A stretch of 28,174 nucleotides of DNA from an uncultured Verrucomicrobiae bacterium (lineage in GTDB: Bacteria > Verrucomicrobiota > Verrucomicrobiia > Limisphaerales > JAFGQR01), in the NCBI GenBank assembly GCA_963788655.1, contig CAWBHS010000040.1, positions 1 through 28,174 on the forward strand. The letters run 5' to 3'. Of the stretch, positions 22,649 to 28,174 are shown one piece after another (within the stretch, counting starts at the first letter, position 1; each line of letters opens with the position of its first letter). The translations under genes and the position numbers were made by a program. The notes below the pieces were generated by a model. That model was not told the DNA's origin. It saw nothing but the letters and a program-made list of their open reading frames with translations, and did no database searches.

Positions 22649-22960
22649 GTGTTCACACTCATACTCTAAGAAGCCACCTCGGATAAAAAGTCTGACACTG
22701 CCTTCGTCTATAAACTCCAAAACACTGTGGCCGGACTCATGTTTTGTGAGCCTAATAGTATCTACGTCAAATGACGGAAAAAACCGCACCTCGATTGGAC
22801 TCGTGCACCTAATCACCAAATCGCGATAATAAGAAACGTCTCTGGTTCCAACGATCACGATCTGTTCCTTACCAAAGTCGTAGCTCTCCACAAAAAAGCC
22901 ATCGTGCAGAGTTGGAAGCAACTCATTAATCGTATCCAGATGTTCAAGCAGTGAGCGCAT
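22643..22960 (-). CDS. integron cassette gene, hypothetical (immunity-protein-like)
   Basis: 105 aa, lower GC. Cassette start GTTAGGTGTGT is complementary to its end ACACACCTAAC over 11 bp. Confidence 0.75.
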   Translation of the reverse strand: MRSLLEHLDTINELLPTLHDGFFVESYDFGKEQIVIVGTRDVSYYRDLVIRCTSPIEVRFFPSFDVDTIRLTKHESGHSVLEFIDEGSVRLFIRGGFLEYECEHT

Positions 22961-23158
22961 ACACACCTAACGAAAAAATATAGGTAATCCGAAGTTATTC
23001 ATCCGGGGACGAGCGGAGCCGCCTGGCGGAGCTCGGCGAAGGACCCGGTGAATAACTTCGTCGCGCCGGGAAATGTTCCGGCGCCCGGCAGGTTTCGGAT
23101 GGCTGACTGGATTCATTCTGCTATCCGTTTCCGCGACTGGTTTTCCCGCCCCGGCGGG

Positions 23159-23899
23159 GTGGCAGGGCCACTTCCCCGTCGCGCTGCGCGCAGCGCCTTG
23201 GGCCGCCGGACCTTCCGGCCCGGCCCGCCGGGCGGGACTTGACCCTCTCAACGACTCCTCAAGAGGGCGTCTCTCATTCACTGTTGAGGACTCTTCTATA
23301 TTGCCGTCGCCCGGGTCAAGTCTGCGGGCAAGGCGGGGCCTTGACCCAAACGCGCTCCGCGCGAAGCGCTGTGGGAAGCGGGCACTGCCCGCCCTGGTCA
23401 TCGGCCTGGATCGCTCCGATCGCAAGGCCGACCTGCACTTCATTGAAACCGCCTCCGGCAAACAATGGTCCCAGACCATCGAGACCAAACCCGAGGCGCT
23501 CCACGACTGGCTGGCCCAGCTGCGCCAGCAGTATCCCGAGGCGAAGATCGGGCTGTGCGTCGAGCAACCCGCCGGGGCGATCATCGCCTTCGTCGAGGCC
23601 TACGCCTGGATCACGATCCACGCGATCAACGAGGCGAAGCCTCGACCCAATGCGCGCGGCCAGCGCGTGGGCGCAGGCACTGCCTGCCCAAGGACGCCCG
23701 TTACCTGGCCGAACTCCTTTGGCATCATTGGGCCGAGCTGCCGGTCTGGTTGCCGGAGGATTCGGCCACCCGCAAACTCCAGCTGTTGGTGGTCCACCGC
23801 CGGGCCGTCGTCGATGAACGCACCGGCCTCACCAACAAGGCAAAGCCTTGACCCAATGCGCTTCGCGCGCAGCGCGTGTGGGAGGCAGGCACTGCCTGC
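23159..23899 (+). repeat. four dispersed copies of a ~60-nt triple-hairpin motif (23159-23219, 23330-23392, 23631-23687, 23837-23899)
   Basis: Copies 2-4 share (A/G)AGGC-NNN-GCCT(T/C)-GACCCAA..GCGC..AGCGC..TGGG..GC(A/G)GGC-ACT-GCC(T/C)GC. Copy 1 has the same fold with diverged sequence. All four are absent from IS copy 2. Confidence 0.8.
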
Positions 23900-24669
23900 T
23901 GGCGGCCGCTGGCCACTGACTTCCTCCTCAAGTGGCCGACTTGCAGAAGGTGATGAAGGTCAAAACCGCGACGCTGATGCAGTTCTATTATGTGCATGGC
24001 TCGCGCAGTGAAAAGGCGATCGAGCGCCGGCTGAGCCTGATCGAACAGGCCGTGCCCTTGACCGATGAACCGGCGTTGCTGGAGAGCTTCACCCTGCGCG
24101 TGCAGCTCCTCTGCCGGGAACTCAAGCTGGTGGTCAACGCGATCAAGGACTACGACCGGCAGATCACCGAAGCCTTCGACGCGCATCCCGACCGCGAGAT
24201 CTTCCGTAATCTCCCCGGGGCCGGACCGACCTTCGCGCCCCGCCTGCTGGCCAGCCTGGGTTCGCAGCGGGAGCGTTTTGCCGATGCGGCGGCGTTGCAG
24301 CATTACAGCGGCATCGCGCCGGTGACCAAACAGAGCGGCGGCAAACGCCACGTGCATCGGCGCTACCTGTGCCCGAAATTCCTGCGCCAGAGTTTTCATG
24401 AGTACGCCAAGGAATCGATCCTCCACAGCCGCTGGGCGGCGGCGTTCTATCAGCAGCAACGGGAGAAGGGTTGTCCGCATCACACGGCGGTGCGGGCGCT
24501 GGCCTTCAAATGGCAACGGATCATCTTCCGCCTGTGGCAGGACAAACAAGTCTACCGCGAGGAAACCTACGAAGCCGCGCTGAAGAAAACCAGGAGCCCG
24601 CTGGTGGCCCGGCTGGAACATATCGAAGTGGGCAAAAGCCCCTTCAAAAACCCGGCGAAGAAAAACTGA
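23393..24669 (+). pseudogene. IS110 transposase pseudogene
   Basis: LVIGLDRSD...CVEQ and QHYSGIAPVTKQSG retained. The start codon and the AKDDAKD catalytic segment are lost to replaced segments, with frameshifts. Confidence 0.88.
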
Positions 24670-24787
24670 AAAACCACTTGTCGGATGCCCTCAGAGGGGA
24701 ACTCAGCGACGCCGGGCCAAGCGTATCGGACATGAAACCAAAGCGTAATCCCGGCGTTCGCTGTAGTGATTTTGTTCGGCTTCCATC

Positions 24788-25015
24788 TCATTGCCGCTCT
24801 TGAATGAACTCCTCCGCCGTAAGTCCGATGTCGCGAGCGATTTGTCGCAGGAGAATTGGGGAAACGTCTCGACCGGGATGATTCGGAACGGTGGTTCCCC
24901 GGCCGTCAGCGTGTCTGTACTGCAAATGCGAACCACGCTGCCGCACAAGCAGAAACCCCAAGGCCTCGAGCCGACGGCAGACCTCGCGTGGTTTTAGAAC
25001 TGGCAGCTTGCCCAT
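24788..25015 (-). CDS. hicA: HicA-family toxin (mRNA interferase)
   Basis: LEALGF..VRQRGSH..YRHADGRGTTVPNH...LLRQI, 75 aa. Confidence 0.93.
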   Translation of the reverse strand: MGKLPVLKPREVCRRLEALGFLLVRQRGSHLQYRHADGRGTTVPNHPGRDVSPILLRQIARDIGLTAEEFIQERQ

Positions 25016-26350: not shown

Positions 26351-26358
26351 AACGACAA

Positions 26359-26700
26359 TATAGGTAATCCGAAGTTATTCATCCGGGGACGAGCGGAGCC
26401 GCCTGGCGGAGCTCGGCGAAGGACCCGGTGAATAACTTCGTCGCGCCGGGAAATCCCGGCGCCCGGCAGGTTTCGGATGGCTGACTGGATTCATTCTGCT
26501 ATCCGTTTCCGCGACTGGTTTTCCCGCCCCGGCGGGGTGGCAGGTCTGCTAACGTTCCGTCGCGCTCGCACGACTTTGAGCTATTATGGACCGGCCCGCC
26601 GGGCGGGACTTGACCCCCTTAACGACTCCTCAAGAGGGCGTCTCTCAATCTGATGACGACTCTTCTATATTGCCGTCGCCCGGGTCAAGTCTGCGGGCAA
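26359..26700 (+). ncRNA. putative IS110 bridge RNA (target-binding loop ~26543-26592, donor-binding loop 26607-26691)
   Basis: Two stems, each enclosing an internal loop and an inner hairpin. Loop segments AGAGGG and CTATATT match the IS ends; CTAACGTT and TGAGCT match attC. Exact RNA ends unknown. Confidence 0.75.
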
Positions 26701-26735
26701 GGCCACCCAACTAAAACACTCAAACCCCAGCGTTC

Positions 26736-28039
26736 ATGAAAGCCACTTGTCCCTACGACCTGGTCATCGGCCTGGATCGGTCCGATCGCAAGGCCGACCT
26801 GCACTTCATCGACACCCACACCGGCCAACAATGGTCCCAGACCATCGAGACCAAACCCGAGGCGCTCCACGACTGGCTGGCCCAGCTGCGCCAGCAGTAT
26901 CCCGAGGCGAAGATCGGGCTGTGCGTCGAGCAACCCGCCGGGGCGATCCTCGCCTTCGTCGAGGCCTACGCCTGGATCACGATCCACGCGATCAATCCGC
27001 TGACGCTCCAGAAATATCGCGAGGCCTTTGTCACTTCGCGCGCCAAGGACGATGCCAAGGACGCCCGTTACCTGGCCGAACTCCTTTGGCATCATTGGGC
27101 CGAACTGCCGGTCTGGTTGCCGGAGGATTCGGCCACGCGCAAACTCCAGCTGTTGGTGGTCCACCGCCGGGCCGTCGTCGATGAACGCACCGGCCTCACC
27201 AACCGCCTGATCGCCCTGTTAAAACAGTACTTCCCGCAGGCGCTGTGAACTCTGCGGCGAGGACTCTCTGGCGGCCGCTGGCCACCGACTTCCTCCTCAA
27301 GTGGCCGACTCTGCAAAAGGTGTCCAAGGTCAAAACCGCGACGCTGATGCAGTTCTATTATGTGCATGGCTCGCGCAGTGAAAAGGCGATCGAGCGACGG
27401 CTGAGCCTGATCGAACAGGCCGTGCCCTTGACCGATGAACCGGCGTTGCTGGAGAGCTTCACCTTGCGCGTGCAGCTCATCTGCCGGGAACTCAAGCTGG
27501 TGGTCAACGCGATCAAGGAATACGACCGGCAGATCACCGAAGCCTTCGACGCGCATCCCGACCGCGAGATCTTCCGTAATCTCCCCGGGGCCGGACCGAC
27601 CTTCGCGCCCCGCCTGCTGGCCAGCCTGGGTTCGCAGCGGGAGCGTTTTGCCGATGCGGCGGCGTTGCAGCATTACAGCGGCATCGCGCCGGTGACCAAA
27701 CAGAGCGGCGGCAAGCGCCACGTGCATCGGCGCTACCTGTGCCCGAAATTCCTGCGCCAGAGTTTTCATGAGTACGCCAAGGAATCGATCCTCCACAGCC
27801 GCTGGGCGGCGGCGTTCTATCAGCAGCAACGGGAGAAGGGTTGTCCGCATCACACGGCGGTGCGGGCGCTGGCCTTCAAATGGCAACGGATCATCTTCCG
27901 CCTGTGGCAGGACAAACAAGTCTACCGCGAGGAAACCTACGAAGCCGCGCTGAAGAAAACCAGGAGCCCGCTGGTGGCCCGGCTGGAACAGATCGAAGTG
28001 GGCAAAAGCCCCTTCAAAAACCCGGCGAAGAAAAACTGA
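26736..28039 (+). CDS. IS110-family DEDD transposase/bridge recombinase (apparent indels at 27246-27266)
   Basis: IGLD, CVE and AKDDAKDA (D-E-D-D), LPGAGP, YSGIAPVTKQSG. Removing two bases restores QALELCGEDLWRPLA. Confidence 0.93.
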
Positions 28040-28174
28040 AAAACCACTTGTCGGATGCCCTCAGAGGGGAGGTATCCGGCGGCAAAAACCCAGATGCCTC
28101 GAAAGGAAAATGACTATGGCAAACCGAAACTCGACGATGATGCCGGGGCAGCGCAAGCCGGATTACCTCCAGCG

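Follow-up and report, generated by a model that had tools for sequence, protein, structure and literature searches.

Four blocks within one IS110-family insertion sequence (IS) of an uncultured Verrucomicrobiae bacterium are copies of a real and conserved small DNA element, here called the cassette, which takes the place of target DNA within genes of mobile elements and disrupts these genes. The IS lies in the stretch of DNA analyzed (the window), an entire contig of 28,174 bp (C40) in an assembly of 8.96 Mb (G000; 115 contigs, 59.6% G+C, completeness 86%, contamination 5.6%). The members of the cassette family are GC-rich near-palindromes of 61–64 nt that fold as three hairpins or as one long hairpin, and they were found in 19 distinct contexts outside the window, in metagenomes as well as in genomes. 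Taking all the evidence together, we hold it probable that this is a genuine, apparently undescribed palindromic element which spreads by patch substitution and kills the IS that hosts it, and the route that we prefer resembles SPDIR, the double illegitimate recombination of short patches.

The cassette replaces four stretches of one IS110 copy

The window contains two copies of the IS on the same strand (Table 1). They belong to the IS110 family, the transposase being of the DEDD type with an N-terminal DEDD_Tnp_IS110 and a C-terminal Transposase_20 domain. An earlier note on this DNA had pointed to four blocks in which copy 1 differs wholesale from copy 2 at similar length, and had taken the replacing sequences to be related hairpin motifs. 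Alignment of the two copies bears this out: they are 94–100% identical outside the four blocks (b1 to b4) and unrelated inside them, with gaps of 110, 238 and 149 nt between successive blocks. These gaps and the trimmed lengths of b1 (53 nt in copy 1 vs 46 in copy 2), b3 (58 vs 59) and b4 (62 vs 64) were reproduced; at b2, copy 1 is net 3 nt longer in the alignment, in agreement with the 58 vs 55 nt reported before. Aligned among themselves, the four blocks have a mean column identity of 80%, which confirms the proposed kinship of the replacing sequences.

Four further relatives of the IS, with 66–70% identity, are present in the source genome (C48:294-1659, C59:58502-59868, C27:21115-22602 and C49:299415-300768); the transposase frame is uninterrupted in the C59 relative and frameshifted in the other three. 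In a six-way alignment of the two copies and these relatives, copy 2 has the sequence of the family at each of the four blocks. Because copy 2 agrees there with the four more distant relatives, copy 1 is the changed copy. The cassette is absent from copy 2 and from the four relatives. The frame of copy 2 is itself split by two 1-nt insertions in the block-4 region (window 27204-27267) into open reading frames 26736-27248 and 27245-28039. These match positions 1-151 and 157-342 of the 343 positions of the NCBIfam IS110 model NF033542, and each piece alone scores below the whole-protein cut-off of that model. Judging from its frame, the copy 2 transposase would likewise be broken, or else frameshift-dependent. 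As both single-base insertions are private to copy 2 when compared with four other family members, the ancestral length of block 4 was 62 nt, equal to b4.

In copy 1 the cassette has done away with some of the 5′ non-coding RNA region, with the start codon, with some of the catalytic region and with a further coding block. Copy b1 lies in the conserved 5′ non-coding region of the IS, b2 takes away the start codon, and b3 takes out most of the KDD part of the catalytic region; the losses of the start codon region and of the catalytic segment had both been claimed before, and a loss of the target-guide loop, also claimed there, would fall to b1. The frame of copy 1 is broken from b3 on (58 nt vs 59 in copy 2), and there is an additional 1-nt deletion after 23940, the extra base at 23940 being present in read-derived contigs. 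In b4, the TGA of the motif is in frame with the upstream transposase codons (..LTN-KAKP-stop). In b3, this TGA is changed to CGA. Contigs from the read sets X3 and X4 show b3 with five extra single bases and a center closer to the family consensus, so that b3 of the window looks decayed or slipped.

Replacement, as opposed to insertion, holds at the blocks and at the sites elsewhere for which a native paralogue is available. As a wholesale event it stands for b2, b3 and b4 but not for b1, which is a hybrid. The 5′ arm and loop of b1 are native IS sequence, as are its first 9 nt (GGTGGCAGG), and CCGTCGCGCT survives in its interior along with further native stretches (similarity z of 3.4, with about 4 of 2000 shuffles as good). 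The new 3′ arm of b1, GCCAC, is complementary to the native 5′ arm, GTGGC.

Table 1. Features of the window and genes hosting the cassette outside it
Feature	Position in window, or contexts	Strand	Remarks
IS110-family copy 1, dead	22977..24700	+	Four overwritten blocks; alignments with relatives
IS110-family copy 2, unmodified reference state for all four blocks	26357..28070	+	Six-way alignment
Cassette copy b1, most divergent	23158..23219 (block 23159-23219)	+	Hairpins GTGGC-AGG-GCCAC and GCCGGA-CCT-TCCGGC
Cassette copy b2	23329..23392 (block 23330-23392)	+	Replaces region with transposase start codon; alignment
Cassette copy b3, shortened center	23630..23687 (block 23631-23687)	+	Replaces codons for PLTLQKYREAFVTSRAKDD
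Cassette copy b4	23836..23899 (block 23837-23899)	+	Replaces 62-64 nt of coding sequence
Host IS110	9 contexts: L097, L100 group, L109, L111, L155, L035, L118, L117, L154		
Host IS66	3 contexts: L101, L105, L112/L115		
Host IS256	1 context: L098		
Host IS1182-type DDE	1 context: L103/L113		
Host IS91	1 context: L107		
Host ISNCY	1 context: L087/L096		
Host TraC/VirB4-like (conjugation-ATPase-like)	1 context: L114		Weak match, 34.5 bits
Host unassigned	2 contexts: L099/L104/L116 and L156		

The blocks are present in independent contigs

A base-calling, polishing or in-silico artefact had been left standing by the earlier note as an alternative. For such an artefact, or one of assembly, it can be said that the motif is confined to one IS copy in the assembly and that public runs contain at most 22% of the words sampled from the stretch. 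To place the read evidence, Logan contigs of four salt-marsh metagenome runs were positioned on 22700-24800. They carry the blocks or variants of them, in place of the copy 2-like sequence on which the earlier note would have given up its claim. Record 2 of X1, a contig of 328 nt, spans b1 and b2 (23081-23410; 4 differences, 2 gaps) and record 18 of X3 spans b2 (23250-23422; 3 differences). The form of b3 with five single added bases is covered by X3 record 19 and X4 record 27, and most of b4 by X1 record 5 and X4 record 29. X1 is possibly the genome's own sample, and would then be independent of the assembler but perhaps not of the sampling. In X3 and X4, variants are seen. Some contigs match just the first 40 nt of b4 and have different flanks on both sides, and some end at block edges followed by native-type IS sequence (loose ends at 23688 and 23836). 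No single listed public contig spans the whole stretch, and the reading given here is confined to its covered parts.

The cassette-bearing records found elsewhere come from JGI and NCBI metagenome contigs and from metagenome-assembled genomes (MAGs), and their contig names indicate different assemblers. Since independent contigs carry the blocks and the motif occurs in unrelated contexts, the artefact reading fails, and we give it practically no credence. The blocks thus exist in reads, differ from one population to another and recur in other surroundings.

A chance origin of the four blocks is likewise excluded. Searched over both strands of the genome (17.9 Mb), a descriptor consisting of a 5-bp hairpin, CCC..GGG and a 6-bp hairpin matched the four blocks and one unrelated site in C6; before the CCC...GGG requirement was imposed, 212 hairpin pairs stood at the correct spacing genome-wide. 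Neither blastn-short, nhmmer, two covariance models nor the hairpin descriptor returned a further copy in G000, the covariance-model searches having scored 150, or 35, of several thousand first-look candidates.

The cassette occurs elsewhere inside mobile-element genes

That the motif should be found in other DNA, if real, was a check proposed together with the original observation, and it gave a positive answer. An exact-pattern scan of one genome per species returned 75 loci with the full cassette in two of them, L035, which belongs to a MAG labeled Verrucomicrobia, and L087; the other 73 were treated as chance, hairpin 1 being absent. With a stricter pattern, 20 loci were obtained in metagenome contigs. 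The cassette is present in 19 of these, with 13 distinct flanks, and the remaining locus (L108) was dropped, as it is without both outer hairpins. Of 150 other genomes of the same order, 3 gave one copy each with the covariance model R2 (G083, G106 and, in degenerate form, G097), and 150 genomes from the phylum's other orders gave none under strict filters with 35 candidates scored per genome. A half-site pattern matched in 29 of 401 genomes of the order, G000 included, while a reversed control pattern gave about 20 matches; the full cassette is present at 3 of the 28 half-site loci outside G000 (G427, G459 and G480).

Each of eight other genomes (G061, G062, G083, G106, G097, G427, G459 and G480) thus carries one copy, and G000 carries four, all within one IS copy. 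No cassette was found in the sister genome G001, in viral contigs or in plasmids. A 36-nt stretch of G001 with 89% identity to the center of b1 (L016, C26:19587-19622) was rejected as unrelated DNA, the likeness being probably a matter of chance in GC-rich sequence.

The genes hit by the cassette are listed in Table 1. They are transposase genes of six IS families in 16 of the 19 contexts and mobile-element genes in 17, and none of the 19 could be called intergenic. Pfam assigned the IS256, IS66, IS1182-type DDE and IS91 hosts and, among the IS110 hosts, L097, the L100 group, L109, L111 and L155. The ISNCY host and the weak TraC-like match were assigned by NCBIfam, L035 and L118 by weak NCBIfam matches together with alignment, L117 by DNA alignment to the IS of the window, and L154 by eye. 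The IS remnant of L117 (G106:C173) has, about 50–130 nt upstream of the cassette, two units of a different hairpin repeat of about 52 nt, which has about 50 matches across the G106 genome. This suggests that IS remnants in this order gather several kinds of small repeats.

The cassette is a near-palindrome with compensatory stem changes

Nineteen copies (the four blocks and 15 from elsewhere) were aligned at 84% mean column identity. Their consensus is AAGGCGGGGCCTTGACCCAATGCGCTTCGCGCGAAGCGCnGTGGGTGCAGGCnCTGCCTGC, and the general scheme is C-AAGGC-NNN-GCCTT-G, ACCCAAT, GCGCTTC-GCGC-GAAGCGC, NGTGGGT and GCAGGC-NNN-GCCTGC. The hairpins listed in the earlier note are present: the minimum-energy DNA fold gives the same three hairpins in all four blocks, and the RNA fold gives them in b1 to b3, with a different structure in b4. 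In consensus-like copies, the minimum-energy DNA fold takes the form of a single long hairpin in place of the three short ones. A C precedes the motif in 19 of 20 copies, by which hairpin 1 is lengthened to six pairs. The copy at L096 is self-complementary at 50 of 62 positions (score of 38 vs a maximum of 18 in 2000 shuffles), an arrangement equivalent to the terminal inverted repeats of miniature inverted-repeat transposable elements (MITEs). The loops of hairpins 1 and 3 are complementary, allowing either a kissing interaction or one long hairpin, in L096 and b1 and not in most copies.

Standard pairs occupy 93.9% of the pair cells of the 19-copy alignment, and pairing falls to 30–48% when the partner is slid by 1–3 columns. 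Five pairs show changes on both sides, and none of 500 shuffles reached the observed number or covariation score; the compensatory stem changes noted earlier among the four blocks are therefore real. They need not mean selection on RNA. The few G-T pairs are able to pair on the cassette strand only.

The last feature, together with stems maintained through compensatory changes, is what would be expected of a functional array of small structured RNAs under selection, for which the IS is merely the location. We regard this as very improbable. Elsewhere the cassette is single-copy and lies inside different broken mobile-element genes, which leaves the array variant put forward in the earlier note without support. 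The cassette being near-palindromic, either strand folds. Stems could also be retained without selection through quasi-palindrome correction by template switching, which is our guess for the pairing of the b1 arms; if right, it weakens the case that covariation means selection. Finally, Rfam gave no match at E values up to 1 for the window, L035 and L087, in line with the earlier statement that no family could be recognized.

Target DNA is lost under the cassette

Comparison with native paralogues extends the loss of target from the blocks to other sites. At L035, in G061, a 63-nt cassette stands where the paralogue in C572 has 44 nt of native sequence (codons EHSSGGKQRMGSIDR). At L087, 61 nt are found against 45 nt in the paralogue in C147 of G062; L096 retains 4 more native bases than L087, so that the overall change at L096/L087 is from 41–45 to 61 nt, and L096 lacks 15 positions of the ISNCY profile (162-176). 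The IS256 host L098 is similarly without 15 positions (144-158) of the Pfam family Transposase_mut. The cassette of L117, in G106, lies at the b4 site of the same IS family and has an identical 3′ junction (…GCCTGC|TGGCG); its 5′ junction is 19 nt further downstream than that of b4, and about 43 nt were replaced by 64. By homology, the loss amounts to about 33 nt at L155 and to about 42–45 nt at L154. From these alignments the usual pattern is the loss of 33–64 bp of target under a cassette of 57–64 nt, with at least one much larger loss, the two lengths being similar and not equal. No target-site duplication was found, target being lost at b1 to b4, L035 and L096/L087.

The flanks show a short conserved word on the 5′ side. 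Of 20 copies, 19 have C at position −1, 15 have A at −2 and 18 have a purine at −3, which together make up the word RAC; at sites with a known native sequence, these bases mostly belong to it. At the 5′ junction, b1 has 9 nt in common with the native DNA, b2 has 6 nt (CAAGGC) and L117 has 2 nt, and the overlap comes to 1 nt at each of b3, b4 and L087. Downstream of the cassette, 7 of 20 copies have TGG within 6 nt. Diverged IS110 genes are struck at equivalent codons, L035 and L154 after CCPxD, and L118 and L155 after DR(M/I)G(N/H).

Orientation and reading frame of the cassette

Of the 17 assigned contexts, 15 have the cassette in sense orientation; in the other two, L103 and L114, it is antisense. 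When its TGA is in frame, it reads (N/D)-K-A-x-P-stop. Among the 14 cases that allow a decision, the TGA shares the frame of the host codons upstream in 11: b3 (as CGA), b4, L035, L096, L097, L100, L098 (apart from a 1-nt loop deletion), L107, L118, L154 and L155; it is out of frame in L109, L112 and L117. Codon alignment applies, in the genes of G000, to 56% of the RAC words and 67% of the RACA words, and 55% of the RAC words are on the sense strand. As 11 of 14 is not clearly above the 56–67% expected from a RAC(A) target, the frame bias was not used as evidence of selection. The RAC target could account for most of the frame bias but not for the orientation bias (15 of 17, related hosts not being independent).

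Both biases would suit a system, host-encoded or brought by a competing element, that deliberately writes a stop-and-hairpin cassette to silence mobile-element genes. The frequency of mobile-element genes among the hosts points in the same direction, and so does the presence of four cassettes in one IS copy and none elsewhere in 8.96 Mb. We nevertheless rate such a system, the boldest of the readings, as improbable, as the frame bias is near the RAC/RACA expectation, no candidate gene lies nearby (the other genes of the window are ordinary), and the adjacent copy 2 and the four relatives are unaffected. In a simple scan, no intrinsic-terminator-like site coincided with a cassette; with no T-run following them, the hairpins are not intrinsic terminators by this measure.

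In a broader form, the cassette would represent a new kind of bacterial DNA mobility, in which a self-folding unit of 62 bp overwrites a target of similar length and prefers mobile-element genes, either as a hyperparasite or as a write-to-kill device. This is a tentative proposal, and we think it rather unlikely. In both versions, the in-frame stop and the stacked hairpins would in effect switch off transposons.

A proposed patch-substitution route for the cassette

SPDIR is reported to yield substitutions of 3 to about 100 bp via microhomology and to be extremely rare, with arbitrary donors; in the model, stray single strands act as primers of Okazaki fragments and become incorporated at the replication fork (bioRxiv 10.1101/2023.11.22.568220). 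As in SPDIR, what is seen here is a short patch replaced by heterologous DNA of similar length. A second preprint reportedly ties SPDIR-type events to single strands made by plasmids. We favor a route of this kind because of the similar lengths, the microhomology at the 5′ junctions, the hybrid nature of b1 and the four same-strand copies within 740 bp.

According to this proposal, the cassette would travel as a single strand, its hairpins protecting it from exonucleases, and would pair with an exposed single-stranded target via a handful of terminal bases (RAC on the 5′ side and often TGG on the 3′ side). The paired strand would then be built into the new strand in the manner of an Okazaki fragment. 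The four copies on the same strand in 740 bp could be the product of one multi-hit event on a single exposed stretch of template, or alternatively of a small number of events that struck DNA in a single-stranded state in the course of transfer. The restriction to mobile genes could fit DNA which is often single-stranded during transfer or transposition.

Several observations weigh against such a route. No donor could be identified in the assembly (86% complete), in viral contigs or in plasmids, and since the four copies differ from each other, no single species of donor molecule made them all. The occurrence of the same 62 nt in 19 unrelated places is not predicted by a process that is rare and takes arbitrary donors, nor does SPDIR predict that 17 of the 19 contexts should be mobile-element genes. 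The sense orientation in 15 of 17 contexts contrasts with the near-even distribution of RAC (just 55% on the sense strand). The pairing of the b1 arms, GCCAC with GTGGC, falls outside simple patch integration. Microhomology at the 3′ junction is weak, with 0–1 nt shared at several sites and none seen at L035, b2 and b3. Lastly, at L112/L115 position 54 of TnpB_IS66 is joined to position 145 of DDE_Tnp_IS66, and about 1 kb has been lost.

Comparison with known repeats and significance

Small palindromic repeats are common, and they are known as insertions that accumulate between genes. The cassette is a repeat of this kind, unusual for its mode of substitution, its rarity and its choice of host. 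A limited search of open-access texts about SPDIR, about small dispersed repeats and about hairpins within transposase genes turned up no description of it.

Its likeness to SPDIR ends with the donor and the outcome: SPDIR donors are arbitrary and its events unique, whereas here one conserved hairpin cassette recurs, nearly only in mobile-element genes and mainly in one orientation. With the REP, BIME and REPIN-RAYT repeats, as portrayed in the sections of PMC3733652 that deal with them, it has in common the short GC-rich palindromes, the conserved stems and the occasional location in genes, a single-strand transposase being suspected in their case. According to the same sections, the REP/REPIN palindrome bears a conserved tetranucleotide, GTAG or CGTC, at one of its ends, whereas the 19-copy consensus of the cassette contains neither of these nor their complements. 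The cassette further differs in that it reaches 1–4 copies per genome vs tens to hundreds for REP, that it is not extragenic while REP sequences are mainly intergenic, that target DNA is lost under it, and that no RAYT gene flanked by it was found; the 12 Y1_Tnp matches of G000 have no adjacent cassette. Palindromic elements derived from IS200/IS605 go in next to a short fixed word on their 5′ side, with neither loss nor gain of target. The cassette likewise has a fixed word (C at −1 in 19 of 20, mostly RAC), and it differs from them by the 33–64 bp of missing target.

Correia and ERIC repeats, which are MITE-like, and the Rickettsia palindromic elements are tiny, consist nearly entirely of two inverted halves and can sit in coding sequence, and in all this they resemble the cassette. 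Unlike them, the cassette shows neither target-site duplication nor proliferation within the genome, and it breaks the host gene, whereas in-gene elements of the Rickettsia and MITE-like type insert in frame and are tolerated. The small dispersed repeats of Nostoc (Elhai et al. 2008) are also said to be very small and structured, with compensatory changes and apparent movement without an obvious enzyme; they reportedly differ from the cassette in measuring 21–27 nt, in being cyanobacterial and in occurring in high copy number within other repeats.

What sets the cassette apart from the usual repeats is that it is rare, replaces its target, is found nearly only in mobile-element genes of at least six unrelated IS families, and disables them. 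If substitution proceeds without an enzyme, the cassette would be the first natural and recurrent case of something met only as a very rare mutation in the laboratory, and would be nature's parallel to oligonucleotide recombineering. Should an enzyme or a defence-like system be responsible, it would be one that writes a defined sequence into chosen targets. Under either reading, the cassette provides a concrete and testable case of IS inactivation in nature.

Candidate enzymes and related sequence units

The enzymatic possibility can be put in more specific terms, the cassette being a miniature non-autonomous transposable element whose dedicated enzyme recognizes the hairpins and the RAC target and swaps the cassette for the target stretch. 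Two candidates can be named, a single-strand HUH/Y1 transposase of the IS200/IS605-RAYT kind and a HNH nuclease, the gene of which ends with the first 24 nt of the cassette. The two-fold symmetry of the cassette is typical of a site bound by a dimeric enzyme. The RAC word, with its nearly invariant C, would be expected of elements whose insertion lies 3′ of a short fixed word, and the hits at equivalent codons of diverged IS110 genes also fit. The 12 Y1_Tnp matches of G000 (for instance C100:16795-17136) and the HNH gene with the shared end likewise speak for it. Several findings speak against a miniature element: each of the eight other genomes examined has a single copy, no cassette lies near any of the 12 Y1 genes of G000 or anywhere outside copy 1, and the consensus lacks a GTAG or CGTC tag. 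IS200/IS605 and REP systems are not known to lose target when they insert. On these grounds an element with an enzyme of its own is, in our opinion, the main rival of the patch route, with a minor share of the probability.

The HNH-endonuclease gene (Pfam HNH_4/HNH_5, about 203 codons) is present in 7 of the 401 genomes of the order (L145, L146, L153, L158, L159, L162 and L174), at L146 downstream of a tRNA-like sequence. It ends with ...FL(N/S)DKAxP-stop, and its terminal DNA, GAC-AAGGC-NNN-GCCTT-GACCCAAT, is that of the first 24 nt of the cassette; 3′ of this end follows a different strong hairpin with a 9-bp stem. The orthologue in G000 (C38:195101-195265) is truncated after about 55 codons, which counts against its acting there as the enzyme of a miniature element. 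From this shared sequence, the end of the HNH gene may be the evolutionary source of the cassette; alternatively, it may be another of the targets of the cassette.

The 5′ module RAC-AAGGC-NNN-GCCTT-GACCCAA is also found with different interiors, at L147, L148, L150, L160 and L164/L173. The unit at L160 truncates a phage-integrase-type gene in frame. Units of this type may be sister families of the cassette. At L166 (G390:C27), a histidine-kinase gene ends with …DGKAAP-stop in a similar hairpin word, and the same stretch of about 25 nt is present again about 130 nt downstream.

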